A DNA stretch of 64,000 bases, from contig CAWAAN010000024.1 of assembly GCA_963779885.1 (NCBI GenBank), positions 78,277 to 142,276 of the forward strand, read 5' to 3'. Each line of letters starts with the position of its first letter. Position 1 is the stretch's first letter. This DNA is from an uncultured delta proteobacterium (GTDB lineage: Bacteria; Desulfobacterota; Desulfobacteria; Desulfobacterales; SG8-13). A model generated the notes under the pieces. The model was not told the origin of the DNA. It did not search any database and saw only the letters and a program-made list of their open reading frames with translations. The translations under genes and the position numbers were made by a program. Of this stretch, positions 17,135-48,914 are shown one piece after another.

Positions 17135-17665
17135 TCACGGTCCCTCGGACCGCCATGACGTTAAAAAAACCATTTTATTTTTTTTATACTTGTAGGGTTT
17201 GACCTTGCTGGTCAGCGTCATCCCCAGGTAGGTGCGCCCGTGAAAGGCATTCTCGAAGGCGATGATGGCTTGCCGCCCGGTCTGGTAGCGGGCGATCTTG
17301 ACGGCATTTTCAACGGCCTCGGCACCGCTGTTGGCCAGCATGGCCGATTTCTCGAAATCGCCGGGGACCAGCTCGCAGAGCCTCTGCGCCAGCCGCACCG
17401 CCGGCTCGTAAGGCAGAACCATGAAACAGGTGTGCGTGAATTTTTCGGCCTGCTCCTTGATCGCCGCCACTATGCGCGGATGCGAGTGGCCGACGTTCAT
17501 CACGGCGATACCACCGGTGAAATCGATGTATTCGCGTCCCGTCATGTCATAGATCATGGCGCCCTCGGCCCGGGCGACATAACAGTCGGTGGCGCTCGCA
17601 AACCCTTTGGCCATCACCTTGTCCCGCAGCGCGGTCAACGACTCGGCAGTGGGGATTGTTTTCAT
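17135..17665 (-). pseudogene. truncated class-III (GABA/omega-type) aminotransferase, N-terminal ~165 aa only
   Basis: YIDFTGGIAVMNVGHSHPRIV, ANSGAEAVENAVKIAR and FHGRTYLGMTLTSKVKPYK match the first third of ~430-aa class-III aminotransferases. Homology ends at an AT-rich tract (17164-17192) and the frame stops at 17135. The PLP-lysine region is absent. Confidence 0.75.
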
Positions 17666-18421: not shown

Positions 18422-20578
18422 GTGAAAAATCCGCCCAAGATATTCAACAAGATCAACACAGCCATTCCGCTGCCGTGTCATCCCCGGGTTTTAATTGCGC
18501 TCAACCGCCTGTGCACCAGCGGGACAGCGAACTTGCGGGATATGGCCCGTTTGGCGACCATGGATCCCGCCCTGACGATTAAGCTCATGCGGCTGCCGCG
18601 GGCCGGCGACCTCATGACCTCCAGCCTCGAGGCGATCGAGCGGTGCATGGCCCGACTGGGCCCGGCAACCATCAAAAACGTTGCCCTCCTGGGCCTGAGC
18701 ACTCCGCTGTCGAATCCCTTGTTGTGGAAAACCGACGCTTATTTCAATCAGTTCTGGCTGCATTCGCTGCGCTGTGCGGTTCTCGCCCGATCGATCGGCG
18801 CGCACCTGTTGCCCGCGCTGGCCGATGAGGCCTACACCGCCGGATTGCTCCACGATGTCGGCAAGCTGCTGCTCTGGTCAAATTTTAAAAAGGACTACGA
18901 ACCGCTTTTCAAGAAGTCGGTTCAGGCCGACGGCGCTCTTCCAGCGGAAAACGACCGCATCGGCACCAACCACTGCGAAGCCGGATGGAGCGTGATCCGG
19001 GCGCTCAATACCCATCCGTTCGTGGCCGATGCGGTGTTGTATCATCACTGCCCTCTTGCGGCGGTCGTGAATGCCCTGCCGCTCGTTAAAATCGTTTTCC
19101 TCGCCAATATCCTCTGTCACCGGGAGCGCCGTACAGACCCGGTCGAACTCGCACGGACCCTCGGCCTCGATCTGCCGGTCGATCGGCTCGATCACATTTT
19201 AGCGCAGGCGCAGACCCAAACCGGGGCCCTTCTGGAAGAGGCGGGGGTGACCGCGGAAGCGCTCGAAAAAGGTCCTTCTCCCGCGGGCGATACCCGCGAC
19301 GCCGCCGTGCACGGCATCATCGGCGAATTCCGTGAGTTGTGCGTCCGGCACCTCACCTTCGAACATGCGCCCGGCGGCAGCGGGCCGGTGGCCATCCAAA
19401 AGAACCTGTGCCAAGTGTTTAACATCCTCTTCGATGTCACCGCCGCCCTGTTGTTTATCTACGATCCGCTGCGCGGCGTCCTGGTGAGCCGGCCCGCCGA
19501 AACGGCCGCCGGTCACCAGTCCGTCGAGCGGATCGAACTGCCGACGACCGCCGGCCGGAGCCTTCCCGCCCTCGCACTCGGCCATCGCCAGATTTACGAT
19601 TCTTTCGGGTACCTGACCCAAGAGGTGATCACGATCGCAGACGAACAGGTGATCCGCCTGCTGGATGCCGAGGGCATGCTGTGCCTGCCGCTGGTTCATG
19701 ACGGGCGCCCGATCGCTGTCATCTGTGCCGGCATCGACGAGCCGCGGTTCCCGCTCTTGTGGGAACAGCTGAATCTACTGACCACTTTTACCGACCAGGC
19801 TGCGGCGCTCCTCGATCCAACGCTTGCCGACGACACGCGGCCGTCCTCCGCCCGCCCAACGGGCGCGCCCCTGGATGACGAGGCCATTGGCCGCGTCCTG
19901 CACGAGGTCAACAACCCGCTGGGCATCGTCAAGAATTACCTGGCCGTGATCGGTGAAAAGATCGCCGGCCGCACCGACGTCAAGGCGGAGATCTCGCTGA
20001 TCCAGCAGGAGATCGAAAGAATCCCCGGCCTGATCGCCCAGTTGTCGGCCGCCCGCGCCAAACCCGCTGCCGGCGATGAACTCCTGGATATTAACGGCGT
20101 CATTTCCGATCTGTCGAAATTGCTGTCCGCCGCCATCCTCGAACCCGCGCACATCGCCCTGACATTCGTCCCCGAACCCAACCTGCCGCCCTGGCCCGGG
20201 AAGAAAAGCCACCTGAGCCAGGTGCTCATCAACCTGTTGATAAATTCCGCGGAAGCCATGCCCTCCGGCGGCCGCATTTTTATGACGACCGCCAGCGAGC
20301 CGGGCGCGGGAGGGACGGACGAAAGCCAGATCATCATCTCCATCCGCGACGATGGCCCCGGCATTCCCGCCCCAACCCTTGCCCGGCTCTTCGAACCCGG
20401 CGTCAGTGACAAGGGCGGCACTCATTTAGGCTTGGGCCTGTCGATCAGCAAGGAGCTTATCGACAGCTTCGGGGGGGCCATCAACTGCCGGAGCCGCGCG
20501 GGCCGCGGGACAACTTTTCGGATCAGCCTGCCGGTTTCGGTTCGCCGCCGCCGGTATCCGGACGCGAGGGACATATGA
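18422..20578 (+). CDS. HDOD-domain sensor histidine kinase
   Basis: GTG start. HDOD motifs are MARLATMDPALTIKLMRL and GLLHDVGKLLL. The H-box is HEVNNPLGIVKNY. The HATPase motifs are DDGPGIP and GLGLSISKELI. Confidence 0.85.
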   Translation: MKNPPKIFNKINTAIPLPCHPRVLIALNRLCTSGTANLRDMARLATMDPALTIKLMRLPRAGDLMTSSLEAIERCMARLGPATIKNVALLGLSTPLSNPLLWKTDAYFNQFWLHSLRCAVLARSIGAHLLPALADEAYTAGLLHDVGKLLLWSNFKKDYEPLFKKSVQADGALPAENDRIGTNHCEAGWSVIRALNTHPFVADAVLYHHCPLAAVVNALPLVKIVFLANILCHRERRTDPVELARTLGLDLPVDRLDHILAQAQTQTGALLEEAGVTAEALEKGPSPAGDTRDAAVHGIIGEFRELCVRHLTFEHAPGGSGPVAIQKNLCQVFNILFDVTAALLFIYDPLRGVLVSRPAETAAGHQSVERIELPTTAGRSLPALALGHRQIYDSFGYLTQEVITIADEQVIRLLDAEGMLCLPLVHDGRPIAVICAGIDEPRFPLLWEQLNLLTTFTDQAAALLDPTLADDTRPSSARPTGAPLDDEAIGRVLHEVNNPLGIVKNYLAVIGEKIAGRTDVKAEISLIQQEIERIPGLIAQLSAARAKPAAGDELLDINGVISDLSKLLSAAILEPAHIALTFVPEPNLPPWPGKKSHLSQVLINLLINSAEAMPSGGRIFMTTASEPGAGGTDESQIIISIRDDGPGIPAPTLARLFEPGVSDKGGTHLGLGLSISKELIDSFGGAINCRSRAGRGTTFRISLPVSVRRRRYPDARDI

Positions 20579-22527
20579 GCGAACGCGCGGCCGTCTTCGT
20601 CGTCGATGACGAACCGAGGATGTGCGAGAGTCTGAAGGCCTTGTTACAGCCGCGGGGCTACGACGTAACGGCGGCCACCTCCGGCGAAGAAGCCTTTCAG
20701 GTCATCGGGCGGCAAAACTTCGACCTTTTCCTGCTTGACATCTGCATTCCCGATCACGACGGGTTCAGGTTGATGGAGCACATTCTCAACCGGCTGCCCG
20801 ATACCCCGGTCATCATGATGACCGGCGAAGCATCGGTTGATTCCGCCGTCAAGGCCTTGCGTGAAGGCGCCTATGACTACCTGAAAAAACCGTTCGAAAC
20901 CGAAGAGCTGGTCAAAACGATCGACAATGCCCTGCGGCAGAAAATGCTCCAGGAGATCAACCAGGAAATGGAAGATCGGTTGCGGGCCTCCGAAAAGCGC
21001 TTTCGCTTCATGGTGCAACATTCTCCGGACATGATCTACACCCTGGATGCGCACGGCCGTTTTACCTTTATCAACAGCGCCGTCGAGAAACTCTTCGGCT
21101 ACCGCGCCATCGATCTTGTGGGTAAATCCTACCAGACGATGCTCTACGAAACCGACATCGACAAGGCCTGCTGGAAATTCAACGAAAGGCGCACCGGCAA
21201 ACGGGCGACCTCCGCCTTCGAACTGCGACTGAAGCCCGGACCCCGCAAGGAACCGCAGGCCGGCCGACCGAGCGACTTCGCCGTCGTCGAGTTGAATGCC
21301 ACGGGAGTATACCGCCGCGCCGGCGCCCGCCGGCAGCTGATCGGGACTTACGGCGTGGCGCGCGACAAAACGTTTCGCAAGATCCTGGAAACCCAGCTGT
21401 TGCAGGCCAAGAAAATCGAGGCGCTCGGCAATCTGGCCGGTGGTATCGCCCACGATTTCAACAACCTGCTCATGGGCATCCAGGGAATTGTCTCGTTGAT
21501 CCTGTTTAAAATGGAGGCCGGCAGCCCTTTCAGGAACCAGCTCGAAATGGTCGAACAGTATGTCCAGGACGGCGCCGGTCTGACGCGGCAGCTGCTGACA
21601 TTCGCGCGGGGCGGAGCGCTCGAAATCCAGCCCACCGATGTCAACGCCCTGCTCCAGAAGCAAAACCAGTTGTTCGGTCGCACCCGCAAGGCCATTCGGA
21701 TCACCGAGAAGCTGGCCTCCAAGGTTTTCGTGATCGAAGCCGACCCCTCCCAGATCGAACAGGTCTTCCTGAACATCTACGTCAACGCCGGACATGCCAT
21801 GCCCGCCGGGGGAGAGTTGCACGTTCAAACCGAAAACGTCCGGCTGACGGAAAAAAGTCTTCTCACCCGCGCCAGGAATCTGAAACCGGGACGCTACGTC
21901 AAGATCACAATTTCCGATACCGGCATCGGCATGGACGAATCGATCCTGCAACGGATTTTCGATCCTTTTTTTACGACCAAGAAGCTCGGCAAAGGATCGG
22001 GGCTCGGTTTGTACAGCGCTTACGGCATCATCAAGAATCACGGCGGCCATATCCAGGTGGCCAGCAAGGAAGGACGCGGCACCATCTTCACGATCTTTCT
22101 TCCGGCCACCAAGAGAAAGCTCGAGCCGTCGGCGGCCTCGTCACCGCGTCGGGTCCTGGGCCGCGAAACCGTTCTGCTGGTCGACGATGAAGACAAGATC
22201 CGCGAGGTGTGCCGCGAAGGCCTGAAGCTGCTCGGCTATTCGGTTGTGGCGGCGGAAAGCGGCGAGCGTGCCGTTGAACTCTACAAGAAGATGGGCGACG
22301 ACATCGATATCGTTGTCCTTGATATGATCATGCCCGGCCTGAGCGGCAGGGAGACATACCTGCACCTGAAGCAGATAAATCCAGAGGTCCGGGTGTTGAT
22401 TGCCAGTGGGTATTCGGTCGACATGCACAATGAGGACATCACGGGCAGCGAAAAACAGTCCATAATTCAAAAACCGTTCAAGATCGAAGACCTGTCGTTG
22501 AAAATTCAGGAAGTCATATCCAACTAA
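20575..22527 (+). CDS. hybrid sensor kinase (REC-PAS-HisKA-HATPase-REC)
   Basis: ATGA overlap with the upstream kinase. N-terminal REC (VFVVDDEP...DLFLLDICIPDHDG), PAS (MVQHSPDMIYTLDAHGRFTFIN), H-box GGIAHDFNNLL, HATPase (DTGIGMD, GSGLGL), and C-terminal REC (VLLVDDED...VVLDMIMPGLSG). Confidence 0.9.
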   Translation: MSERAAVFVVDDEPRMCESLKALLQPRGYDVTAATSGEEAFQVIGRQNFDLFLLDICIPDHDGFRLMEHILNRLPDTPVIMMTGEASVDSAVKALREGAYDYLKKPFETEELVKTIDNALRQKMLQEINQEMEDRLRASEKRFRFMVQHSPDMIYTLDAHGRFTFINSAVEKLFGYRAIDLVGKSYQTMLYETDIDKACWKFNERRTGKRATSAFELRLKPGPRKEPQAGRPSDFAVVELNATGVYRRAGARRQLIGTYGVARDKTFRKILETQLLQAKKIEALGNLAGGIAHDFNNLLMGIQGIVSLILFKMEAGSPFRNQLEMVEQYVQDGAGLTRQLLTFARGGALEIQPTDVNALLQKQNQLFGRTRKAIRITEKLASKVFVIEADPSQIEQVFLNIYVNAGHAMPAGGELHVQTENVRLTEKSLLTRARNLKPGRYVKITISDTGIGMDESILQRIFDPFFTTKKLGKGSGLGLYSAYGIIKNHGGHIQVASKEGRGTIFTIFLPATKRKLEPSAASSPRRVLGRETVLLVDDEDKIREVCREGLKLLGYSVVAAESGERAVELYKKMGDDIDIVVLDMIMPGLSGRETYLHLKQINPEVRVLIASGYSVDMHNEDITGSEKQSIIQKPFKIEDLSLKIQEVISN

Positions 22528-22670
22528 CTGCTCACCCCATAATAACGTCAGATGTCGATTGATCCCGTCCGACAGGGTTGTGAAAACTCTTTAAAAGCCC
22601 AGATATTTTCGCGCCTTGCCGGCCGGGCGTCTCAGCGCCAAAAATGGTGAACTTTTTCTTTCGTGACCCC
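22528..22670 (+). mobile_element. MITE-like palindromic repeat, copy C (shorter, gapped)
   Basis: It aligns by eye with copies A and B. The ends are CTGCTCAC...GTGACCCC, and the right half GCCTTGCCGGCCGGGCGTCTCAGCGCCAAAAATGGTGAACTTTTTCTTTCGTGACCCC is nearly identical to copy A. It is flanked by TAA (22525-22527, which is the kinase stop codon) and TAA (22671-22673). Confidence 0.65.
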
Positions 22671-22708
22671 TAAACGTCCTCCTTCTTCTTGGCGGCGGTG
22701 AAGCGGCC

Positions 22709-25700
22709 TCACTTTTCCTTGGTGCTCACAAGCAACTGGCCGGTAAACAGCATGCGGGCCGCCGCGCCGGTGTACCAGCTCCACCCGCCCCGGCCCTCGT
22801 AGCCCGGCCCGCAATAAACATCGGCCGGCTGCTGATGCGGCGGCAGGCCATAGATCGCCAGGTCTGCGAGGGCCAGGTGGCCGAGCGGTGAGATCTTGCG
22901 CCACAGACTCCGCGCTTTGGCCCGGTAATCGGCGGCGACTTTTTCTTCCCCCCGCCCCGTGGCCTCATCCGCCAGAACAAGCAGCGCATCGACCAGCCAG
23001 GACACACCGTGCGCATATTGGCCGCCGTTCTCGCGGACCCCCGGCGGATAATCGGCCAGCCGGCCGGGATAGACGGCGTCATTTTCGGTAAAAGGCGGCG
23101 CAAAGAGTTGGACGAGGGTCTCCTTTTCGAGTTCCCTCAGAGCCGTGGCCATGGCCTGCCGCCCCCTTTCCGGACCCGCGACGCCGGAGAGTATCGACCA
23201 GGCGGCCACCAGGGCGTTGGGGCGGGTCAGCGGCCGTCCACTATCGGTGTAATAGTTGACATACCGGTCTCCCAGCCACGTCGCGTCGAGGCGGTTTCTC
23301 AATGCCGCGGCTTTCGCCAGCAGCTCCTTCTGGCGGCCTTGCCCTTCTTTTTTCGCCGCCAGGTCGGCGAAGTGGGTCAAAACATCGTGAAAGAAGAATC
23401 CGAGCCAGACACTCTCGCCCCTGTTTCTGATCCCGGCCGCATCGAGGCCGTCGTTCCAGTCGCCGGCCCCCAGCAGCGGCAACCCGTGCGACCCGGTTTT
23501 CTGAAACGTGAGGTCGATCGCTTTGAGACAATGCTCATAGAGGCGCGCCGTGTCGCGGGAAGCACGCTGTGCCGCCACCTGCGTGGCGGCCTTTTTCCCC
23601 AGTGATCCGCCTTCCAGGTAAGGCGTTTTTTCGTCCAGAATTGGCCAGTCTCCCGTGGTGTTCACGTAATGGTAAACCATGTAAGGCAGCCACAGGTGAG
23701 GGTCCGAAGCCCGTCCACGGGCGCCTATGCCCGTTTTTTCCTCCCAGGATCGATGCCACCACTGCAAGACCTCCCCGCCGCGAAACTGCTGGGCGGCGTG
23801 ACGTAGAATCTGCCGGCGGGCCAGCTGGGGTTTGAGGTGAAGGAGCGGCAGGATATCCTGGAGCTGGTCGCGGAAGCCAAAGGCCCCGCTGCGCTGGTAC
23901 GGCCCCAGCCGGCCCCAGAGACGGGCCACCAGCACCTGATACGGCAGCCAGCAATTGACCAGCCGATCGAAGGCATGATCGCCGGAGCGGGCCGACGGCT
24001 CTCCGAGATATTGCCGCCACCACTGCCGGGTGTCGACAAAGGCCTGTTGAGCGGCGGAGACATCCCGAAACCTATGGATGATCTGAGCGGCGTGTTCCCG
24101 GCTGGGGGTCTGGCCGAATATAAAACTCACCGTCACTTCGCCTGAGGCGGGAACCTGCACCTCGCCGGCGAAAGCCGCGCAGCGAAAGCCGTCATCGGGC
24201 CGGCTCGCATCGGAGGTGCCGTATTGCAGCATGAAGGGATTGGTGAGGTCACGCCCGCTGCCGCCGAGGACTCTGGCCCGCACCGTCTCGAATGCGGCCG
24301 CCGTCAGACTCGTGGCGGCAAAGGCCCAGCCGCGCCAGTAGTCATTGTGAGGATTGGAGAAGAAAAGCGCGGCCAGGTCTTGGTCGTGTTCCGTGACAAT
24401 GCGGCCGCGCGTATCCACCGGCATCTCTCCCAACATGATCTGCCAATACGGTAGCACGCGATACACCAGGGGCTCTGCGGTGCGATTGCGAATCGTGAGC
24501 AGTCGGATCTCGGCCGGCTGGTCGGGTAAAACGAAATGACACATGTCAAGTTCGAGCGCCGCGCTGCGGTTTCGGGAAATCGAATAGCCCGGGCCCCAGC
24601 GCACATCGAAAAACCGGTCCTTTCTCCGCAAGGGAATGAAGGTGGGCGTATCCGCCTGGCCGGTCGTCCGGTTCAGCAGGTAGAAAACCTGCCCGGGCAG
24701 CTGCGAGGGAACCGAGTCGGTGTCAAACGGCGTCAGACCGTTTTGCTGCGAATTTTTCATGAAGGAATAGCCGGCGCCCTGGTTCGATACCACGCAGCCG
24801 TAGCCGAGGGGATTGGCCATCACATGACTCCAGGGACGGGGGGTGTGGCAGCCGACGGTCAGTTCGCCGCCGTCGGGTGCAAACCGGTAGCAAAGAGACG
24901 CGGGGTCGGCGCTGCCGGCTTTTTCCGCGGCGATGGGCCGGTTCAGGCGGCGCGTCCGGGTAAAGGCGGGCCAATCACGGGCATCCGCCGGCAGGCGCCG
25001 GCCCAGGTGTTTCGCGATGCGCGTCAAGGCCTGGTGCTCATCAACCCCATAACCGTCGACGAAGGTCACCGTGGCCGCGCCGAGCGGCGGCAGTTCGACC
25101 CGCAGGCACAGGCTGGCCACCGGGTCGAAGGTGTAGCACAGGCCTTCGTCCGCGGGGTCGCGCCGGCCGGCCGTCAGCCCCGCGGGCGCCGACAGCGTCG
25201 CGCGGCCGATGAAAAGCGAGCGGGAGTCCTGGTATCCGATGAGGGTGACCCCGTTCACGGCATCCTCTTTCACTGCGTGAAAGGCCGTCTCGGTCGAAGC
25301 CTGGCGCCCGGCCGTGTCCTTATGCGCCCGCTTGAGCCGGCGGTTGCCGGCCAGCAGGGCGCCCAGCGGACGAACGAAACGCGTGCCGATATGCAGGTGG
25401 TTGAAAAAAGGGTGGCGCTGGTAGGCGTCGGTGTTGTTCAGAGCGAACTCCTGATAACTGGTCAGCTCGATGATTCGGGGCCTGGGTTCGAGATTTCTCA
25501 ACTGCACGTGCCGGACTTCCACCGGTTCGGTCGCCCCCACGCGCAGAGTCACTGCGGCGCTAATGCCCCTTTGTTCGGTCGTCATTTCCAGGGCCAGCGG
25601 ATCGGGTTGCTCCATTCGGTAGTCGCCTTCCCGGCGCCGCACGGGGGCAAAACCAATCGACCAGAACCCAGCGGGATCCTCCGGCGCACCGGACCACTCC

Positions 25701-28150
25701 CGCAGATAAAAAAATTTGCCTCGCATCTGGAGCGGGTCATCCGGCCGGCGGGTGATATCGATCTCAAAGCCCTTTCGCAGGGCGCTGAAAACCCGGCTGT
25801 GCCCCCGGCCGTCGCCGGTGATCTCGGCCGTGTACGTGCCGTTGGACAGGACGAATTTTTCGTGTCCGTCCGGCGAAGGACGCCCCTGCGCCGCCCCTGA
25901 TAGCGGCCGAATGGCCGCCGGCGGCGACCGGCGTTTTTGGAGGGCGAAAAAAAGTCCCAGCGCACCGGCGACAAATAGAAATCCGCCCACGACATAGGTG
26001 ACCGGCGGCCAGGCGGTGGCGGCCCGCTGCGCGGCGCGTTCGGCCGAGGTTTGCCAGACGTAATTCCATTCCGCACCGCGTGGCAGGTAGAAGGGAATCA
26101 GCAGGGGCGCCCAGGTGGCAAACCGCCTCAAGCCCAGGGGCATGCAGCGGGTGCGGGCCGAATAACCGATGGCCCGGGCCGCCTTTTCGTCCAGGATGTC
26201 GACGCCGACAAAAGACAGATTGACGAGGGTGGCCACCCGCAGCCCCATGTGGTCGACCCAGATCAGAATGCGGAACCAGTCGTAGACCAGCAGGTTGAGG
26301 AAAACGTTCAGGCTCCACGCACGAAAGCTCTCGGGATCGAGGGTCCAGCTCTTGAACGTGGCCACGAGGGTCCGGATGGCGCCGTCCTGGTTGTACCAGG
26401 TCGGGTCCGGCGACATGCGCAAAAAGGAATAGATAATCGGTGCCATCCACAACCCCCACCGCAGAACGCGCACGGCCTGCTCGACCAGCCCGACCACCCC
26501 CTGGCGCGTCAACAACTCTTTCAAGGGTACGGTGCTGCGCTGGAGCATGGCATTGAGGACGACAAGGTTGATACTGAAAAGCGGCGCCGCCAGTGACCAG
26601 TTGATCACGCCCGAAAGCGCCTCGTTGTAAAGCAACCGGACACCGCCGGGAGTGTGGCCCAGGTTCAGGGCGCCCCATTTGCTGAAAAGCGGGTAAATGA
26701 CGTAATCGGCCACAGCCTTATCGGCCGCGGGATAGTAAAGTGCGGCGTATTTGAAGAACTTGCTGGTCAGCACCCGCAGCTGCAAGGTGTCGGCGTACCA
26801 GGCCAGTCCGCCGCCGGCGACGCCACCCAAAACGATCCCCAGGGCATACACCCGCCAGGCTTGGAGGCGCTGCCGTCTGCCGGTCAGCACATCGACGGCG
26901 TCCCTTAGAAAATCGACGCCCCCGTAACCCGCGGCACCGGCCAGAAACCCGAAAAAAAACCGTTCGTCGCCGCCGATCATCGGCAGGCCGTTGGCGAGGG
27001 CATCCCCGCCAAAGCCGCCCAGCACGGCCCCGCGCAGTAAATCGACGGTCTGGCGGTAATTTTGGCCGGCTCTCTGAAAAAACCGGCCGCTGCCGTCGAA
27101 GGTTTCGATGATGGTCTTTAGAAATGGGAAGACCAGGGCCCCCGCACAGGCGGAGAATATCACGGGGGCGGCCCTGGCCACTGAGACGACGGCGTCTACC
27201 CGCATCAGCACGGCCAGGAGTTGGACCATCGAAATGAACACCAGGCTGTAGACGGCCCCTTTGGAAAAACCGGACCGGAAGTGGTCGGAGCCCCAGTACC
27301 AGGTCGGCGGCTTGCCATGAAAGGCGTCCATGATCAGGCCGGTGATCAGGAAGGTCTGGCTCCAGAGACCCGCCTGGGAGAGCATGGCAAAAAAAAGGGC
27401 GGCCGGCACGGCAACGATCCAGGGCCGGCCGGCCAGGTAGGCGGCCGATCCCCAGTCGGCGAATTCCGGCGTGACGGCGGCCATCAGGGCGCTGCCCAAC
27501 AGCAGGGCGTGCACCCTCGCATCTGCGACCAAGCGCCTGACCACCAGCAGGCCGATCAGGTTGGCGACCGCCTCGTTGAACAGCCCCAAAATGACGCTGC
27601 GCCCCAGGAAAACCGGCAGCAGGGAACTGGCGGTCGCGCCGGACAGGGCCGCACCGCCGATCAGTCGCACGAGATCCGTGTTTCCGATGAGAAGCACCCC
27701 ATTGAAAAGGGAGGGAATCACCAGAATCGTGCCGGCCAGCAGCGGCGGAGGATGCCGGCCGGCAACCAACAGACGTTGCACCACGGCCAGGCTGTAGATC
27801 ATGGTAAAGAGGCTCGCGGCCAGGCCGGTCATGACGAAAGGGTCATTAAGCGTCCTGGGCACCTGCCATAGGTCGAGGCCGGCCCGCACCCAGAGCGCAA
27901 AGAGGGCCGACACGAGAAAGTCCTGAAAAGCTTCGACCCCTGTGAGCCACTTCCCGGTGAATTGCCACTTAAAGAATCCGGCCGCCAGCAGTCCGAAAAC
28001 GCCCGCCGGCAGGGCGCTCACCCACCCTTGCCCCCGAGCGGTGGCATAAATGGAGGCCGCCGCGGCCAGGGTGCCACACCAGAAAAGGGGCCCGCCGGGC
28101 ATCAGACGGTCTTTGGCAACTGCGCCTTTTTCGTGCACCTTCTCTGTCAT
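22709..28150 (-). CDS. multi-pass membrane domain fused to a GH94-family glucan phosphorylase (1,2-beta-oligoglucan phosphorylase / cyclic-glucan-synthase C-domain like)
   Basis: 1813 aa. The N-terminal ~740 aa is almost entirely hydrophobic segments. The C-terminal ~1070 aa carries GFRDQLQD, EVLQWWH, SDPHLWLP and LLGAGDWNDGLD, typical of GH94. Confidence 0.85.
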   Translation of the reverse strand: MTEKVHEKGAVAKDRLMPGGPLFWCGTLAAAASIYATARGQGWVSALPAGVFGLLAAGFFKWQFTGKWLTGVEAFQDFLVSALFALWVRAGLDLWQVPRTLNDPFVMTGLAASLFTMIYSLAVVQRLLVAGRHPPPLLAGTILVIPSLFNGVLLIGNTDLVRLIGGAALSGATASSLLPVFLGRSVILGLFNEAVANLIGLLVVRRLVADARVHALLLGSALMAAVTPEFADWGSAAYLAGRPWIVAVPAALFFAMLSQAGLWSQTFLITGLIMDAFHGKPPTWYWGSDHFRSGFSKGAVYSLVFISMVQLLAVLMRVDAVVSVARAAPVIFSACAGALVFPFLKTIIETFDGSGRFFQRAGQNYRQTVDLLRGAVLGGFGGDALANGLPMIGGDERFFFGFLAGAAGYGGVDFLRDAVDVLTGRRQRLQAWRVYALGIVLGGVAGGGLAWYADTLQLRVLTSKFFKYAALYYPAADKAVADYVIYPLFSKWGALNLGHTPGGVRLLYNEALSGVINWSLAAPLFSINLVVLNAMLQRSTVPLKELLTRQGVVGLVEQAVRVLRWGLWMAPIIYSFLRMSPDPTWYNQDGAIRTLVATFKSWTLDPESFRAWSLNVFLNLLVYDWFRILIWVDHMGLRVATLVNLSFVGVDILDEKAARAIGYSARTRCMPLGLRRFATWAPLLIPFYLPRGAEWNYVWQTSAERAAQRAATAWPPVTYVVGGFLFVAGALGLFFALQKRRSPPAAIRPLSGAAQGRPSPDGHEKFVLSNGTYTAEITGDGRGHSRVFSALRKGFEIDITRRPDDPLQMRGKFFYLREWSGAPEDPAGFWSIGFAPVRRREGDYRMEQPDPLALEMTTEQRGISAAVTLRVGATEPVEVRHVQLRNLEPRPRIIELTSYQEFALNNTDAYQRHPFFNHLHIGTRFVRPLGALLAGNRRLKRAHKDTAGRQASTETAFHAVKEDAVNGVTLIGYQDSRSLFIGRATLSAPAGLTAGRRDPADEGLCYTFDPVASLCLRVELPPLGAATVTFVDGYGVDEHQALTRIAKHLGRRLPADARDWPAFTRTRRLNRPIAAEKAGSADPASLCYRFAPDGGELTVGCHTPRPWSHVMANPLGYGCVVSNQGAGYSFMKNSQQNGLTPFDTDSVPSQLPGQVFYLLNRTTGQADTPTFIPLRRKDRFFDVRWGPGYSISRNRSAALELDMCHFVLPDQPAEIRLLTIRNRTAEPLVYRVLPYWQIMLGEMPVDTRGRIVTEHDQDLAALFFSNPHNDYWRGWAFAATSLTAAAFETVRARVLGGSGRDLTNPFMLQYGTSDASRPDDGFRCAAFAGEVQVPASGEVTVSFIFGQTPSREHAAQIIHRFRDVSAAQQAFVDTRQWWRQYLGEPSARSGDHAFDRLVNCWLPYQVLVARLWGRLGPYQRSGAFGFRDQLQDILPLLHLKPQLARRQILRHAAQQFRGGEVLQWWHRSWEEKTGIGARGRASDPHLWLPYMVYHYVNTTGDWPILDEKTPYLEGGSLGKKAATQVAAQRASRDTARLYEHCLKAIDLTFQKTGSHGLPLLGAGDWNDGLDAAGIRNRGESVWLGFFFHDVLTHFADLAAKKEGQGRQKELLAKAAALRNRLDATWLGDRYVNYYTDSGRPLTRPNALVAAWSILSGVAGPERGRQAMATALRELEKETLVQLFAPPFTENDAVYPGRLADYPPGVRENGGQYAHGVSWLVDALLVLADEATGRGEEKVAADYRAKARSLWRKISPLGHLALADLAIYGLPPHQQPADVYCGPGYEGRGGWSWYTGAAARMLFTGQLLVSTKEK

Positions 28151-28205
28151 GTCCGTTCCCGGTTCCGTCGCAAAGCATTGCTGAGACAGGAACTAAAGGT
28201 CTTGA

Positions 28206-28361
28206 GGGCTCACTCAAAAAAAGCGTCACATTCAAGACGCCGATAAATTCCGTCCTCCCGCGTTGCGAAAACTCGGAATATACAAATGTTCCTGCGTTTT
28301 CACGCCTTGACGGCCGGGCGACTCAACGCCGAAAATTGTGACCTTAATCTTTCGTGAGCCC
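28206..28361 (+). mobile_element. MITE-like palindromic repeat, copy A (156 bp)
   Basis: Terminal inverted repeats GGGCTCAC...GTGAGCCC, with TGA on both flanks (28203-28205 and 28362-28364). 125 of 156 positions are identical to the reverse complement of copy B in my ungapped manual alignment. Confidence 0.7.
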
Positions 28362-28442
28362 TGAGACCGGCAGGCGGGCGATCACCGGACAAAGCGGCTC
28401 CCGCGCGGAAACCAGCGCTTCGTTTAGTGATCGGCGGTCGCA

Positions 28443-30020
28443 TCAGGGTTGATAGACATAGCTCCAGGTTTCACTGAGCACGTCGGGACCTCTTTTCAAA
28501 AAGGCCCTGATTTCGATCGGGCCCGCCGGTCCGGGTTCGGCCGGCTTTTCAGGGTCGATCTGAAAGACCAGGCGCCAGTGACCGGTTTGCGGTACTTTGG
28601 CGAGCTGCTGTTCGACAAGGGTGGCATTGGGGCTGACATGGACGGCCGCTGCGAGCGGCTGATCGCCGGCCAGCGAGGTGAGGTCGCCGCCGGTGAAATC
28701 GACCACGAACTTACGCAACCCGGGTGCTTTGCCGTCGGCCGTGCGGGAGGCATCCACATACGCGCCCGGCGGGCGATGCCCGTCGGCGAAGTAATGCCAG
28801 CTCATGCGGTAGTCGAAACTGACGGGCTGGCCGACCGGGGGCGGGGTGGCGGGGACCCAGAAGGCCACGATGTTGTCATGGATCTCTTCGTCGGTCGGGA
28901 TCATGATCAACTGCACCCGCCCGTCGCCCCAGTTGCCGACCGGCGCCACCCAGAGGCTGGGCCGATTTTCATAATTGCTTTCGATGTCCTGGTAGTGGTC
29001 ATACGCCTGGTCCCGCTGCAGCAGACCGAAGCCTTTGGGGTTGGTCATCTGAAAGGAGGTCACCAGAAGTTTGGGCGGGTTCACCAGCGGGCGCCAGATC
29101 CATTCGCCGGAGCCGGTCTCCATCATCAAGCCGTCGGTGTCGTGAATTTCGGGCCGAAAGTCGTCTACCGGCCGCGGATACGTGTTTTCACCATAAAAGA
29201 ACATGCTCGTCATCGGCGCAATGCCGAGTTGCTCGATTTTTCGCCGGGGCAAAAGAGTGCTTCTGACATCCATCACCGTCTCTTTTCCAGGATGAATGAC
29301 AAACTGATAGGCACCCACAATGCTGGGGCCATCGAGAATGGCATAGAGGGTGAGCGTCTTCGCGTCGGGGGCCGGTTTTTGAATCCAGAACTTGCGGAAG
29401 TACGGAAATTCTTCACCGCTCGGCAGAGTGGTGTCAACGGCCAGCCCGCGGGCCGAAAGGCCGTAGTTCATGTTTTGGCCGACCGCCCGGAAATAGCTGG
29501 CCCCGAGAAACACGGCCACCTCGTCCTGATATTCCGGTGTGTTGATGGGATAGTGGATGCGAAACCCAGCGAAGCCCAGATCATCGGGCACGAGGTCCGC
29601 GACCCTTTTTTTCTTGTAGTCGAAGAGGTCCTTCGAAAAGCGCACCGGATGGATGGTGCCCGACGGTTCGATCACGTTTATCTTCACCGTCCGATCGAAA
29701 TAAAGGCCCGGATGAAAGAATTGCAGCGTAAAGGGCAAATTTTCGTCGCGCCACAGGGCCTTGGGCGGCTTGAAGCGAATGTCACGCCAGTCGTCATAGT
29801 CGATCTTCATGAGCCGCTCGGGCACTTCGCCCGCGGGATTCATGTAAGGTGATTGGGAAAGCCGGCGGGCTTCATCGACCGCCGTTTCAAATGTAAAGGG
29901 GGTGCTGGCCGCGGCCGCGGAGAGATCGAGCCGGGCACAGCCGCTGAAAAGGGCGAGAGGAAGAAAAAGAAGAAAAATGTGACGGTGGCGGAACCAGTCG
30001 AAAAATTTCAACATCATCAT
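28443..30020 (-). CDS. opgG: periplasmic glucan biosynthesis protein, OpgG/OpgD (MdoG/MdoD) family
   Basis: 525 aa with a signal peptide or lipobox-like FSGC. Motifs YDDWRDIRF, LQFFHPG, FAGFRIHYPIN, YFRAVGQ and EFPYFRKFWI are typical of MdoG. Confidence 0.9.
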   Translation of the reverse strand: MMMLKFFDWFRHRHIFLLFLPLALFSGCARLDLSAAAASTPFTFETAVDEARRLSQSPYMNPAGEVPERLMKIDYDDWRDIRFKPPKALWRDENLPFTLQFFHPGLYFDRTVKINVIEPSGTIHPVRFSKDLFDYKKKRVADLVPDDLGFAGFRIHYPINTPEYQDEVAVFLGASYFRAVGQNMNYGLSARGLAVDTTLPSGEEFPYFRKFWIQKPAPDAKTLTLYAILDGPSIVGAYQFVIHPGKETVMDVRSTLLPRRKIEQLGIAPMTSMFFYGENTYPRPVDDFRPEIHDTDGLMMETGSGEWIWRPLVNPPKLLVTSFQMTNPKGFGLLQRDQAYDHYQDIESNYENRPSLWVAPVGNWGDGRVQLIMIPTDEEIHDNIVAFWVPATPPPVGQPVSFDYRMSWHYFADGHRPPGAYVDASRTADGKAPGLRKFVVDFTGGDLTSLAGDQPLAAAVHVSPNATLVEQQLAKVPQTGHWRLVFQIDPEKPAEPGPAGPIEIRAFLKRGPDVLSETWSYVYQP

Positions 30021-30042
30021 GTGCCTCCATAAATCGGTCTAA

Positions 30043-30198
30043 GGGTTCACGAAAGAATAAATTCACAGTTTTTGGCGTCGCGACGCCCAGCCGTCAAGGC
30101 GCAAAAAGTCAGGAATATCTGGATATTCCGAGTTTTTGCAACACCGACGGACGGGATGTATCGGCGCCTGAAATGTGAATTTATTTTTGAGTGAGCCC
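30043..30198 (-). mobile_element. MITE-like palindromic repeat, copy B (156 bp, inverted relative to A and C)
   Basis: Ends are GGGTTCACGAAAGAATAAATTCACA...TGTGAATTTATTTTTGAGTGAGCCC (~25-bp imperfect TIR). The centre is palindromic (GCAAAAAGTCAGGAATATCTGGATATTCCGAGTTTTTGC). Flanks are TAA (30040-30042) and CAA (30199-30201). Confidence 0.7.
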
Positions 30199-30231
30199 CA
30201 AGTCCGGTCATGCATCGCGTTTTTGCCGACG

Positions 30232-31878
30232 CTACCGGAACTGTTTGCGCAGGGCCCTTTTGTTGAGTTTGCCGACGCTGGTCTTGGCGATGCTCTCGAC
30301 CAGCAGCACCTGGCCGGGCACGCCGAACTTGGGGATCGTCCCGTTCTGCACGAATTTCATGAAAAAGTTCAGCAGGTCCTCTTCCTTGACTTTGCCCGCG
30401 AACTCTTTTTTCAGAACCACCAGGGCCAGGGGGCGTTCCCCCCATTTTTCGTCGGGTACGGCGATGACCGCCGCCTCGCTGACGGCCTCGTGCTGGCTGA
30501 TGATGTCTTCCAGGGTCAGCGAGGAAACCCATTCGCCGCCGGACTTGATGACATCCTTGATCCGATCGGTGATCTTCAGGTAGCCGTCACCGTCGATGAA
30601 CCCCACATCGCCGGTGTGCAGCCAGCCGCCACGCCACAGCTCTTCGCTGCGCTCGGGTTCCTTCAGGTAGCCCTGGGTCAGCCAGGGCGCGCGGGCCACC
30701 ACCTCCCCGGTCGCCTGGCCGTCGTGCGGCAGCGATTTTCCTTCCGGATCGACGATGTCGAGAACGACGTTGGGAATCGGCAATCCGGTGCGGCAGCGGA
30801 TGTCGACCTGCCGGTCCCGGTCCCATTCCAGCATGTGCGGCTTGAGGTTGGCCAGGGTCAGGATCGGGCAGGTCTCGGACATGCCGTAGCCGGTGAAAAC
30901 GTTGATTCCCAGATCGAGCGCCGCCCGGCAGAGACCCTTCGGCAGCGCGGAGCCGCCGATGATCACTTTCCAGTGCGACAAATCGACCTTCTTGACGGCC
31001 GGGCTGGACAGCAGCATGTGCAGGATGGTCGGCACGCAGTGAGAAAACGTGACGTTTTCCGCGGCGACCAGTTTCAGCAGCATTTCCGGTTCGTAGCGGC
31101 CGGGATAGACCTGCTTGGTGCCCAGCAGCGTCATCAGGTAGGGGATGCCCCAGGCGTGGACGTGAAACATCGGCGTCATGGGCATGTAGACGTCGCCGGA
31201 ATCGATGGTGGCCTGGGTCTTGTAGGCGCACAGCCCCGCCAGGATGCCATAGGTGTGCAGCACCAGCTGGCGATGGCTGAAGTAAACCCCCTTGGGCAGG
31301 CCGGTGGTGCCGGTGGTGTAGAAAGTGGTCGCCATCGTGTTTTCATCGAAATCGCCAAACTCGTAGCCCCCGTCGTTCTCACCGAGCAGGGCCTCGTATT
31401 CCCCCGCGATGGCCAGGGCGGTCGGCGGCGCCGCGTCGGCATCATTGATAAGGATAATCTTTTTAACCGTTTCGAACTGGTCTTTGACCCCCTCGAGCAA
31501 TGGTAAAAACTCGGCGTTAACCAGGATGATGTCGTCCTCGGCGTGGTTGATGGTGTAAATGAGCTGCTCGGGCGACAGGCGCACGTTGATGGTGTGCAGC
31601 ACGGCGCCCATCATCGGCACCGCAAAAAAACACTCCAGGTAGCGGTGGCTGTCCCAGTCCATCATCGCCACGGTATCACCCGGCTGAACGCCCTGCCGCT
31701 GCAGCATGCCGGCCAACCGTGTCACGCGGTTGAAAAACATGTCATAGTCGTAGCGCACCCGGTCGCGGTAGACGATTTCCTGTTGCGGAGCATGGATTAG
31801 GGGGGTCGACAGCATGTTCTTGATCAGGAGCTGATGCGGATAGGCTGACGGAGTTCGGTGGATCTGTTTGGCCGGCAT
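30232..31878 (-). CDS. AMP-dependent acyl-CoA synthetase/ligase (FadD-like)
   Basis: Trimmed to ATG 31878 (AAGGAG upstream). Motifs YTTGTTGLPKGV, TGYGMSET, GWLHTGD and IKSGGEWVS are present. Confidence 0.9.
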   Translation of the reverse strand: MPAKQIHRTPSAYPHQLLIKNMLSTPLIHAPQQEIVYRDRVRYDYDMFFNRVTRLAGMLQRQGVQPGDTVAMMDWDSHRYLECFFAVPMMGAVLHTINVRLSPEQLIYTINHAEDDIILVNAEFLPLLEGVKDQFETVKKIILINDADAAPPTALAIAGEYEALLGENDGGYEFGDFDENTMATTFYTTGTTGLPKGVYFSHRQLVLHTYGILAGLCAYKTQATIDSGDVYMPMTPMFHVHAWGIPYLMTLLGTKQVYPGRYEPEMLLKLVAAENVTFSHCVPTILHMLLSSPAVKKVDLSHWKVIIGGSALPKGLCRAALDLGINVFTGYGMSETCPILTLANLKPHMLEWDRDRQVDIRCRTGLPIPNVVLDIVDPEGKSLPHDGQATGEVVARAPWLTQGYLKEPERSEELWRGGWLHTGDVGFIDGDGYLKITDRIKDVIKSGGEWVSSLTLEDIISQHEAVSEAAVIAVPDEKWGERPLALVVLKKEFAGKVKEEDLLNFFMKFVQNGTIPKFGVPGQVLLVESIAKTSVGKLNKRALRKQFR

Positions 31879-32008
31879 GGTGGACTCCTTTCTGCGATCG
31901 GTTGAATCACGTGAAACCCGTGTCATCTGGGGCTGGTTTATCTCAAATTTCGGCCCATTCATCAAGAGCGTAATCTCTTCAAGGCCCGCCGCCCGGTGCC
32001 TTCTCACG

Positions 32009-32086
32009 CACAAATTGTCTCAATGGCCGCCACCCGAAAGATGGTATCGCTGTCATCCGCCACCCCCGAACCGTGAACCCTGAACC
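32009..32086 (+). repeat. 78-bp dispersed intergenic repeat, copy 1
   Basis: CACAAATTGTCTCAATGGCCGCCACCCGAAA...TCATCCGCCACCCCCGAACCGTGAACCCTGAACC. 67 of 78 positions are identical to 46511..46588 by manual alignment. It lies 16 nt beyond the stop of the minus-strand gene at 32102. Confidence 0.7.
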
Positions 32087-32101
32087 TCCAACCTGAGGTC
32101 T

Positions 32102-46472: not shown

Positions 46473-46510
46473 AATTATCGATCTTATTTGCGAGATAGTG
46501 CCTTGCCACC

Positions 46511-46588
46511 CATAAATTGTCTAAATGGCCGCCACCCGAAACCTCGAAATGCTTTCATCCGCCAACCCCAAACCGTGAACCCTGAACC
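46511..46588 (+). repeat. 78-bp dispersed intergenic repeat, copy 2
   Basis: CATAAATTGTCTAAATGGCCGCCACCCGAAA...TCATCCGCCAACCCCAAACCGTGAACCCTGAACC, followed by an extra GTGAACCC unit. It lies just 3' of the minus-strand gene ending at 46657. Confidence 0.7.
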
Positions 46589-46656
46589 GTGAACCCTTTC
46601 CGTGCCTGCTCTTGCCTCGCTCAAGGCCGCTGCGACACGTCAAAGATGACACGGCG

Positions 46657-48909
46657 CTAGATCAAAGACTTGCAGTAAACCACCTTGCCGTCACCCGGCG
46701 CGTAAAAATCCGCCAGCACACTCTCCAGGCGATAGCCGACGCTTTCGTAAAACGCCCGCGTACTCGCGTATTGCACCCGCTGGGAGGTTTCGACGTAAAT
46801 GCGCGTCCCGCCGCGCTGCCGTATCAGGCGCTCGGCCTCCTTTAGAATCCTGCGCCCCAACCCTTTGCCCTGATAATCCGGATGGACCGCTATCCAGTAA
46901 ACATCGTAGCTCGACACCGTGCAGGCAATCGGCCCATAGCAGGCGTAGCCGGCCAGGCGTCCGTAGTGCTCGGCCATGACATAGTGGTATCCGCTGGCCT
47001 CCCCCTTGACCAGGCGTTCGTCGACAAGCTCGACCGCCACCTTTACTTCGTCGGTGGTGAAAAAACCGGTGATGTCCGTTAAGCGAGAGATCCTTTCGGG
47101 ATCCTGAGGCTGCAGCTCATAGCGAAAGACGATGCCGTGCAGCCGGATCTTGGGCTCCGGGCGCCGGCCGACCGCTTTCATGTGCGCCTCCGCCAGACCC
47201 TTGAAGAAATGGCGGGCGTTCTGCCCGAGGGTCCGGGTGCGGTAGCCGCCTTCCTGAACCACCACCGTCGGCACGGCCATCGCGCCGATCAGGCGTCCGT
47301 TTTCCTCGAAATCTTTGGCCATCAACGACCAGGAGCCGGTCGGATCGCCCTTGGCGGTATCCAGGCCCAGGGCCACCACCATAAATTGAGGGCCGTATTC
47401 TTCTATTCTCTGAAGCGCCTTGACCAGCGCGCGGCGGTATTTTTCACCGTCCAGATGCTCCTGCAGCGGAAAGTTCAGGTTGAACCCCTCGCCCTCACCG
47501 TCGCCGCGTTCGTCTTCGAAACCACTGAAATAGGGGTAGGCAAACCGGGGGCTGCCGTGGATCGAAACGGTCAGCACATCTGACCGGCGGTAGAAAATAT
47601 CCTGTTGACCGTTGCCGTGGTGATAGTCGATGTCGAGGATGGCGACTTTTCCGTAGGCGCAAAGGTACTGGGCCGCGATGGCGTTGTTGTTAAAATAGCA
47701 GAAGCCGCCGAAGGCCCGGCGTTCGGCGTGATGGCCCGGCGGTCGCACCAGGGCGTAGGCCATGCGCCGGCCGTCCAGGATTTCACGGGCGGCGGTCAGC
47801 GCGCAGTCCACCCCGCGCCGCGCCGCCGGATACGCATTGCGGTTGATGGGGGTGAAAGTGTCGATGCAGTAGTAGCCTGACAGGACCGACGGCTCTTTCG
47901 GGGGGCGGGTCTTGTTGCGAACCGGAAACACGTACGGATAGAGGGATTTGCCCTCGGGCACATCCTCGGAGGCGTGATGGAGATAGCTGACGAAATCGGC
48001 ATCGTGAACGGCGTGGATGGTTTTGTCCGGAAACGGCCGTGGTTTGAGCCGGGCAAACAAACCGCTCTTGTCGAGTTCCGTCAGGATGCTGCGCACCCTG
48101 ACGGGTGACTCCACGTATCCGCGCTCGTGCACGTGATGGATGTGGTGACGGTCATTGACGATCAGGGCGATCTGCTCGATGGAGCGGTCATCGACCGTCG
48201 TCTTCGCGGCCTGCGGTTTGACATACCGGAACTCGCGCAGAGCCACCGGATCTTCCCGAAAAGAGGCCACCACCTTCTCGACATATTCGGCCGGGCAATA
48301 CCCGCTGTACTTTCTTTCCAGGATGGCCCGCACCACTTTGCGCGCCAATGCGCGGCGCAACGGGTTGACGGCATCCAGGGCATCGTAGACCAGATGGGGC
48401 ATACAGCTGTCGCCCGGATTGACGGGCAGCTCGTAGCCGGTGTGAACGATCGGCCGGGCGCCATAGCGCTCGTAAAATCGCAGGCGCGCCCGGTTTTCCT
48501 TCAGCAGGGTTTCATCGGGGCAGTTGTCGGCGTCGTCCGGCAGACACTCGAAAAAAAGCCCGCCGGCGCCCAGGGCGACCGATTCCCGGCGCACCCGGTC
48601 ATACAGGGCGCCGCCCAATCCACCGCCGGTTTTGCCGCTAACCGTGGCGATCCAGTCCAGATAACAGAAGCCGATTTCGGGCTCGTGCAACAGCATGGCA
48701 AAGCCCTTGACACGGCTGCGCAGCGTCTTGGCCACAAAGAGGATGGGACGAAACCGCTGTTTGAACGGGTTGCGCAGCTTGGCGCCGATCTGCTCGATTT
48801 CCTCTTCGGGGACTTGGCTGAAGCGGTCGCGCAGGATGGCCTTGACCTGTTCCAGGGTCTCCTTGTTGACCGGCAGGACGTCATCGAAAATGCGGCGAAT
48901 GCGCAACAT
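46657..48909 (-). CDS. tri-domain GNAT / histone-deacetylase-family amidohydrolase / GNAT fusion protein
   Basis: Trimmed to ATG 48909 (AAGGAG upstream); 750 aa. The N-terminal part is GNAT-like (GKTGGGLGGALYDRV). The central part is HDAC/acetylpolyamine-amidohydrolase-like (RPPGHHAERR, GFCYFNN, LDIDYHHGNGQQDIF). The C-terminal GNAT has IAVHPDYQGKGLGRRIL. Confidence 0.85.
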   Translation of the reverse strand: MLRIRRIFDDVLPVNKETLEQVKAILRDRFSQVPEEEIEQIGAKLRNPFKQRFRPILFVAKTLRSRVKGFAMLLHEPEIGFCYLDWIATVSGKTGGGLGGALYDRVRRESVALGAGGLFFECLPDDADNCPDETLLKENRARLRFYERYGARPIVHTGYELPVNPGDSCMPHLVYDALDAVNPLRRALARKVVRAILERKYSGYCPAEYVEKVVASFREDPVALREFRYVKPQAAKTTVDDRSIEQIALIVNDRHHIHHVHERGYVESPVRVRSILTELDKSGLFARLKPRPFPDKTIHAVHDADFVSYLHHASEDVPEGKSLYPYVFPVRNKTRPPKEPSVLSGYYCIDTFTPINRNAYPAARRGVDCALTAAREILDGRRMAYALVRPPGHHAERRAFGGFCYFNNNAIAAQYLCAYGKVAILDIDYHHGNGQQDIFYRRSDVLTVSIHGSPRFAYPYFSGFEDERGDGEGEGFNLNFPLQEHLDGEKYRRALVKALQRIEEYGPQFMVVALGLDTAKGDPTGSWSLMAKDFEENGRLIGAMAVPTVVVQEGGYRTRTLGQNARHFFKGLAEAHMKAVGRRPEPKIRLHGIVFRYELQPQDPERISRLTDITGFFTTDEVKVAVELVDERLVKGEASGYHYVMAEHYGRLAGYACYGPIACTVSSYDVYWIAVHPDYQGKGLGRRILKEAERLIRQRGGTRIYVETSQRVQYASTRAFYESVGYRLESVLADFYAPGDGKVVYCKSLI

Positions 48910-48914
48910 CGTGG

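Follow-up and report, generated by a model that had tools for sequence, protein, structure and literature searches.

Short palindromic repeats between genes have been described in several groups of bacteria, and they include the closest known counterparts of the element treated here, a ~156-bp unit present in three copies around the glucan genes opgG and GH94 in a 64,000-nucleotide stretch of DNA from an uncultured delta proteobacterium of the Desulfobacterales (contig CAWAAN010000024.1, positions 78,277 to 142,276; the whole stretch is hereafter called the window). The Correia elements (NEMIS) of Neisseria are likewise ~100-160 bp long, intergenic and multicopy, carry terminal inverted repeats and form long hairpins in their transcripts. 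They duplicate TA and are not known outside Neisseria, whereas the present element duplicates TWA (W being A or T) and resides in Desulfobacterales; no sequence similarity between the two was seen. Correia elements often lie just upstream of genes, and the effects described for them involve promoters, integration host factor (IHF) sites and cleavage by RNase III (PMC10969869). The repetitive extragenic palindromes (REP) and the bacterial interspersed mosaic elements (BIME) are palindromes of 20-40 bp that go with genes for a REP-associated tyrosine transposase (RAYT) and lack target duplications, unlike this 156-bp unit with its matched duplications. ERIC sequences of enterobacteria, ~127 bp long, are imperfect palindromes of similar length in intergenic positions. 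Copies of ERIC are co-transcribed with their neighbours and affect mRNA decay (PMC10969869). The present family differs from ERIC in having matched duplications and empty sites as well as another host clade, and the two show no sequence relationship. In Geobacter uraniireducens, the MITE (miniature inverted-repeat transposable element) Chunjie has one copy inside an operon and dozens in intergenic regions (PMC10969869). Its host belongs to a related group of anaerobes. Chunjie differs in its length of 178-235 bp, in its unrelated sequence and in that a parent insertion sequence (IS) has been identified for it and its copies have been counted in a complete genome.

Among prokaryotic IS families, those that best fit a C-TWA-G target with a 3-bp TWA duplication are the 3-bp subgroups of IS5; TAA or TTA is likewise duplicated by the related eukaryotic PIF/Harbinger transposons and by their Tourist MITEs. 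Within IS5, members of the IS1031 group commonly have an insertion site of three nucleotides (PMC2516522). The MITEs of this IS1031-type subgroup and the Tourist MITEs share with the present element that they are short and non-coding, have terminal inverted repeats and are flanked by a 3-bp T-N-A or T-W-A duplication. Membership of the present element in this group is read from the target duplication alone, and no IS sharing its ends was found.

Three copies of the element in the window

The three repeats are, with a probability of about 90%, copies of a ~156-bp MITE, a non-autonomous DNA transposon of Desulfobacterales. They and their flanking triplets are located as follows.

MITE copy A: 28206-28361, + strand; full-length, 156 bp, 84% identity to the family consensus; in the opgG-GH94 spacer
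Copy A, left duplicate TGA: 28203-28205, + strand; read from the flank
Copy A, right duplicate TGA: 28362-28364, + strand; read from the flank
MITE copy B: 30043-30198, − strand (inverted relative to A and C); full-length, 156 bp, 86.5% identity to the consensus
Copy B, flank TAA (TTA in element orientation): 30040-30042, + strand; read from the flank
Copy B, flank CAA (TTG in element orientation), one base off its partner: 30199-30201, + strand; read from the flank
MITE copy C: 22528-22670, + strand; degenerate, 143 bp, two internal deletions, 73% identity to the consensus
Copy C, left duplicate TAA, which is the stop codon of the kinase gene: 22525-22527, + strand; read from the flank and the open reading frame (ORF)
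Copy C, right duplicate TAA: 22671-22673, + strand; read from the flank

The initial annotation had given these coordinates and orientations, the flanks TGA/TGA (A), TAA/TAA (C) and TAA/CAA (B), and an identity of 125 of 156 positions between copy A and the reverse complement of copy B; all were borne out, the identity by an ungapped alignment. A repeat search returned A and B as an inverted pair of 164 nt that is 80% complementary. With a profile built from five copies, nhmmer detected the three window copies at E-values of 2e-49, 2e-48 and 6e-38, and a motif drawn from the three copies had 3 matches in the window, where shuffled sequence would give 0.05. The terminal sequences GGGCTCAC...GTGAGCCC and the palindromic core that had been described were found in the window copies. 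Copy C, the most decayed of them, is alignable over its full length despite the two internal deletions and a left end mutated to CTGCTCAC. Judged from their identity to the consensus, which has a median of 94% for copies elsewhere, the window copies are old.

A and B share five extra bases (GACCG) past the right-hand triplet (28362-28369 and 30035-30042), which reflects either chance or an extended target preference.

Target site and duplication

The flanks were compared at 35 independent insertion sites of the family. The triplets on the two sides match perfectly at 18 of the 35 and with one mismatch at 14, against a mean of 9.2 perfect pairs when partners were permuted (p < 1e-4), and for triplets lying 3, 6 or 9 nt farther from the element the number of matching sites is 0-1. 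Where TTA or TAA stands on both sides, the pairs are TTA/TTA (15 sites), TAA/TAA (7) or mixed (2; Fisher p = 1e-4). Since the triplets vary between copies yet agree within a copy, and the outer triplets are unmatched, they are duplicated target and not part of the element. The target reads C-TWA-G, with T-W-A at the junction, C at position −4 in 24 of the 35 sites and G at +4 in 18. The duplication usually is TTA or TAA, and copy A, with TGA, has one of its rare variants.

Copies in other genomes

A strict pattern representing the conserved right half of the element was searched in species-representative genomes and gave two loci in metagenome-assembled genomes (MAGs).

L003: Desulfobacterales MAG; element between ftsQ and ftsA
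L004: uncultured deltaproteobacterium MAG

A slightly looser pattern matched 55 metagenome contigs. In the MAG and metagenome loci found by these patterns, the nhmmer profile detected 70 non-overlapping copies or fragments, 61 of which are essentially full-length with both flanks. They occupy 42 contexts that, once orthologous sites were merged, represent the 35 independent insertion sites, and the hosts are Desulfobacterales MAGs and sediment metagenome contigs. The plasmid collection, searched by BLAST with the consensus, contained one additional copy. It is carried by a 108-kb plasmid from Desulfosarcina sp. BuS5 (NZ_CP087953.1, 100047-100203; L065 8001-8157), shows 81.5% identity and is flanked by a perfect TAA/TAA pair; no annotation is listed for it. 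The plasmid also encodes type-F conjugative transfer proteins and is a possible route by which the MITE spreads between genomes. A wider search for copies, suggested in the initial annotation, thus yielded the 35 sites and the plasmid copy. These sites, their variable but matched triplets and the empty sites described below agree with what had been proposed from the window, namely a non-autonomous transposable element with 3-bp TNA duplications.

In a rough scan with ORFs of at least 100 aa, every copy lies between long ORFs, two spanning ORFs appearing spurious. At approximately one in five sites, as at copy C, the neighbouring ORF has its stop codon overlapped by the flanking triplet, and the same rough ORF calls gave no bias of orientation relative to neighbouring genes across the family. 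Two copies or fragments occur within 0.15-5.5 kb of each other on five other contigs.

L018: 5861-6324
L040: 1719-3825
L035: 155-2521
L050: 2292-6110
L048: 3506-9150

This clustering fits local transposition or regions tolerant of insertion. Several contigs start or stop at or near a copy (e.g. L007, L013, L016 and L023), as expected of a repeat that breaks assemblies. In L038 (positions 3497-3690), the MITE is represented by a truncated right end (TTA GGGTTCACGAAAAGATAAGTTCGCGC) that abuts another small palindromic element, GGGCCCTGGAAAAAAATAATTCCACA...TGTGGAATTATTTATTTCCATGACCC, which is flanked by TAA and looks like a second, related MITE family with the same target.

The literature searched contained no description of a MITE in Desulfobacterales or in strain BuS5. 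As far as that search showed, the element is a well-defined MITE family that was previously undescribed.

Empty sites in relatives

Joining the flanks of the metagenome loci and searching with BLAST gave no empty site, and empty sites were therefore sought through homologues of OpgG and FtsA. Both searches found relatives with the spacer unoccupied, the comparison that had been suggested for the target-site duplications. Relatives with 96% identical FtsA have the unoccupied ftsQ-ftsA site ccggtTTAAgaggagg; three aligned contigs read ...ccggcaccggtTTAAgaggaggtcggcaaATG, with an ftsQ-ftsA spacer of 14 nt. At the same site L003 reads ...ccgtcgccggtcTATG[156 bp]TAAcaggaggttgggaaATG, i.e. ccggtcTATG[156 bp]TAAcaggagg, and the homology between L003 and its relatives in ftsQ and ftsA reaches both ends of the element. 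At E <= 1, nhmmer found the element in none of the seven ftsQ-ftsA loci retrieved.

In L003 (3531-4653, minus strand) the left duplicate is mutated (TATG), and the ftsQ ORF runs through nearly the whole element to stop at a TGA near its right end, giving 372 aa compared to 310-311 aa in the relatives. Unless this is an assembly error, the MITE would here encode a C-terminal extension of ftsQ.

The genes next to the window copies are the following.

Hybrid histidine kinase/response regulator gene: 20575-22527, + strand; Response_reg, PAS, HisKA and HATPase_c domains; converges on GH94
GH94-domain glucan gene: 22709-28150, − strand; 1813 aa; from ORF and domain scan
opgG/mdoG periplasmic glucan biosynthesis gene: 28443-30020, − strand; 525 aa; from ORF and domain scan
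AMP-binding enzyme gene, upstream of opgG: 30232-32013, − strand; called as 548 aa in near-identical MAG contigs

The copies occupy three consecutive spacers (kinase/GH94, GH94/opgG and opgG/AMP-binding gene); the filled spacers around GH94 and opgG and the position of copy C on the TAA stop of the kinase gene had both been noted correctly before. Copy A lies 81 nt past the opgG stop and 55 nt ahead of the GH94 start, and copy B has its forward orientation toward opgG and ends 22 nt ahead of the opgG start codon. Because B and A are so near these starts, any transcript across the spacers contains a long hairpin.

Relatives with OpgG proteins 83%, 80% and 77% identical to that of the window retain the opgG-GH94 pair with spacers of 143, 144 and 88 nt that lack the element, compared to 292 nt in the window, and they have TCA where the window reads TCA[element]TCA. 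Copy B is absent upstream of their opgG genes, where the ribosome-binding region aligns (gaccgatttatggaggcac versus gaccgaccaatggaggcat). The absence of A and B, the two copies that this comparison covers, from every relative examined (OpgG 77-83%) fits an insertion in the lineage of the window.

In L061, an independent copy stands 3 nt past the GH94 stop in the orientation opposite to copy C. L060 and L061 have identical OpgG and different genes downstream of GH94 (~17190-17370); L061 diverges from L060 approximately 20 nt before the MITE, which is found only in L061 and there has no right-hand duplication (TTA/AAG). The break suggests a rearrangement or a deletion at the element. Between opgG and the AMP-binding gene the relatives also have a gene for a rubrerythrin of 169 aa (L060 9393-10001); the same spacer in the window (30021-30231) holds only copy B. 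GH94 is called as two ORFs in L060 (11719-17194; 1638 + 206 aa) and L061 (11719-17209; 416 + 1409 aa) and as one ORF of 1813 aa in the window; the split calls are frameshifts or assembly errors.

Palindrome and predicted fold

The element has ~50% G+C and is an imperfect palindrome from end to end. The family consensus is GGGCTCACTCAAAAATAACTTCACATTTTGGACGCCGATGCATCCCGTCCGGCTGTGTTGCGAAAACTCGGAATATCCAGATATTCCTGCGTTTTCGCGCCTTGCCGGCCGGGCGCCTCAACGCCCAAAATTGCGAACTTATTTTTTCGTGAACCC, and its left end GGGCTCACTCAAAAATAAC pairs with its right end GAACTTATTTTTTCGTGAACCC, these being the terminal inverted repeats. All full-length copies of the family measure 143-158 bp, which is too short for a transposase gene.

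The terminal inverted repeats and the palindromic core had been expected to fold into a hairpin, and the folds computed are in accordance with this: copy B forms a nearly perfect hairpin (−80 kcal/mol, z = −10.5), and copy A a weaker one, with z of approximately −4.7 on each strand. The RNAalifold consensus was fragmentary, so pairs were counted on the fold of the consensus instead. On that fold 91.6% of cells are paired, and the terminal helices are paired in 91-94% of cells (37 copies). Two-sided changes occur at 16 pairs compared to 7.5 ± 1.9 in shuffles and 8-13 in slid controls, and the plasmid copy has matched changes in both terminal repeats. This upkeep of the palindrome would fit either symmetrical ends that co-evolve with the transposase binding them or selection on the hairpin.

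The better-folding strand is the same in 35 of 35 copies, with means of −69 versus −51 kcal/mol. The difference amounts to 6 versus 1 G-U pairs in the consensus (6 versus 4 in the ungapped register) and is not significant. As a sign of selection at the RNA level this asymmetry was set aside, the G-U pairs being few and inherited from a common ancestor. No Rfam family matched at gathering score across the window, and the sole match at E <= 1 within 22300-30500 was a chance hit to isrB inside opgG.

Mobilisation in trans and the partner transposase

A transposase acting in trans is needed because the element is without room for a protein of useful size. The mover would be a DDE transposase whose gene lies elsewhere in the genome and which recognises the terminal inverted repeats and cuts TWA with a stagger of 3 nt, the behaviour of the IS5 3-bp subgroups and of the PIF/Harbinger relatives. 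The copies in the window are most likely old and inactive passengers. Transcripts of opgG and GH94 would include A, B and C in the form of long RNA hairpins that may alter mRNA processing or termination, and the glucan module would need none of them.

Several results weigh against this explanation. Pfam scans of 26 ORFs of the window found no transposase; the 26 comprised six ORFs next to the locus and, of the remaining 51 called greedily, 20 that included every one of 200-470 aa, the length at which a partner transposase would be expected. A search of all loci, ~600 kb, with the terminal repeats alone and up to 4 mismatches found no longer element bounded by isolated ends that match, and yielded only truncated copies and the different small element of L038. 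The plasmid collection holds one copy of the MITE and no IS with matching ends, and the table of the BuS5 plasmid has transposases of IS4, IS3, Tn3 and IS200/IS605, none of IS5 type. The strict pattern was found in only two species-representative genomes, once in each, with no complete chromosome in the scope of the search. The mutual identity of 70-80% among the window copies indicates no recent activity of these copies. Finally, the whole element is conserved, and at five orthologous sites its divergence is about half that of the flanks; purely neutral decay predicts neither.

Half copies in L050 and L017 were considered as ends of an IS and rejected, since they are truncations beside ordinary genes. 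In viral contigs, a search with either end gave a single match, a chance hit inside a phage gene resembling the large terminase subunit.

The link to IS5 made in the initial annotation agrees with the target. The 3-bp TWA duplication corresponds to the three-nucleotide insertion site of the IS1031 group (PMC2516522) and points to a partner from the 3-bp subgroups of IS5, inferred from this duplication alone; an IS with the same terminal repeats, as looked for in the window ORFs, the ~600 kb of loci, the plasmid collection and the viral contigs, was not found.

Alternative explanations

One alternative would make the repeats immobile, as a structured RNA or a conserved regulatory region peculiar to the glucan locus; it could be supposed from the fact that all three window copies adjoin glucan genes and that a fourth lies just past GH94 in a relative. 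We consider this extremely improbable: unrelated contexts in which the element also stands number at least 32, with ftsQ/ftsA and a plasmid backbone among many more, the orthologous spacers of relatives lack it, its flanking triplets are variable yet matched, and no Rfam family was hit. The unrelated contexts and the empty sites refute such a locus-specific control region. Being intergenic, palindromic, multicopy and without coding capacity, the repeats also resemble palindromes of REP/BIME or ERIC type, which would have been spread by a RAYT or through recombination, with no DDE reaction of the cut-and-paste or the copy-and-paste kind. However, the ends are defined, the 3-bp duplications vary between copies and match within them, and the target is C-TWA-G; a length of 156 bp is moreover several times that of a REP unit, and such an origin is very unlikely. 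Equally slight is the chance that B and C are arms of a composite transposon or of an invertible segment that moved or flipped the 7.7-kb glucan module. The two are inverted relative to one another and bracket the module, the genes flanking the opgG-GH94 pair vary between relatives, and L061 departs from L060 ~20 nt before a MITE without right-hand duplication. But C has an intact TAA/TAA and B its own TTG/TTA, where an inversion between C and B would leave TAA/TTA at C; the order of the AMP-binding gene, opgG and GH94 is the same in relatives without the element, and variable contexts of the opgG-GH94 pair occur in genomes without the MITE. Inversion or mobilisation of the module had been raised in the initial annotation. 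Since each copy keeps its own duplication and the gene order is common to the relatives, there is no sign in the flanks compared here that the module was inverted or moved, and we see no evidence for the elements having done so.

A different kind of proposal would supplement the MITE explanation without taking its place, namely that the copies were co-opted and that their hairpins, promoters or protein-binding modules set how strongly opgG and GH94 are expressed relative to each other, or how stable their mRNA is. The filling of three consecutive spacers is mildly unexpected (p ~0.004 if copies fall at random among ~40 spacers, ~0.04 if by length), and A and B are close to the starts of GH94 and opgG. 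Copy A contains a weak promoter-like TTGACG-18-GAAAAT pointing away from GH94 and a terminator-like hairpin with a run of T7 on the transcribed strand, and precedents exist, effects through promoters, IHF sites, RNase III and RNase E being documented for other bacterial MITEs (PMC10969869). All 156 bp are conserved, compensatory changes exceed those in shuffles, and one strand folds better in every copy. At five orthologous pairs of sites the element has 30 differences in 780 positions, against 287 in ~3,860 in flanks that are largely coding; a sixth pair, which carries a deletion, runs the opposite way, and a seventh was left out as its flanks did not align as orthologous. The slower divergence hints at constraint or homogenisation. 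Against co-option, relatives retain opgG-GH94 without any element, the family shows no orientation bias relative to neighbouring genes, the strand asymmetry comes down to a few inherited G-U pairs without significance, the window copies are the most decayed of the family, and the consensus does not conserve the promoter and terminator matches, which are weak in themselves. We therefore hold co-option of the window copies to be rather unlikely, and no positive evidence emerged for the promoter, terminator or RNA-processing roles raised in the initial annotation. The same doubtful standing is given to its broader form, in which the family would persist since its hairpin serves the host as an RNase III/E site or as a stabilising or terminating hairpin, and the window copies would be an acquired regulatory layer on glucan synthesis; the 156-bp conservation, the paired changes, the slower divergence and the clustering in the window and on five contigs are hints in its favour.

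Implications and further observations

The repeats are thus mobile DNA of an ordinary kind, and the glucan locus has in them no control element dedicated to it. As they are insertions and not ancestral control sequences, regulatory models of opgG and GH94 should start from relatives free of the element. The family provides annotators of Desulfobacterales genomes and MAGs with a consensus, defined ends and a target motif for a repeat that currently goes unannotated. It may contribute to breaks in assemblies, as several contigs begin or end at or near copies, and it can serve as a presence/absence marker between closely related lineages. The C-TWA-G target and the TWA duplication point to a transposase of IS5/PIF-Harbinger type active in marine sulfate reducers and predict its ends: the parent element, if it is as predicted, would be 0.8-1.6 kb long and bounded by GGGCTCAC.../...GTGAACCC and TWA repeats.

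The window also contains an unrelated direct repeat of 98 nt, with copies at 31996-32093 and 46498-46595 that are 83% identical and have no match in Rfam. Both lie in spacers of minus-strand genes, one upstream of the AMP-binding gene and the other after the deacetylase/GNAT gene at 46657-49155, and both end in short repeats of the GAACC type (CCGTGAACCCTGAACC).

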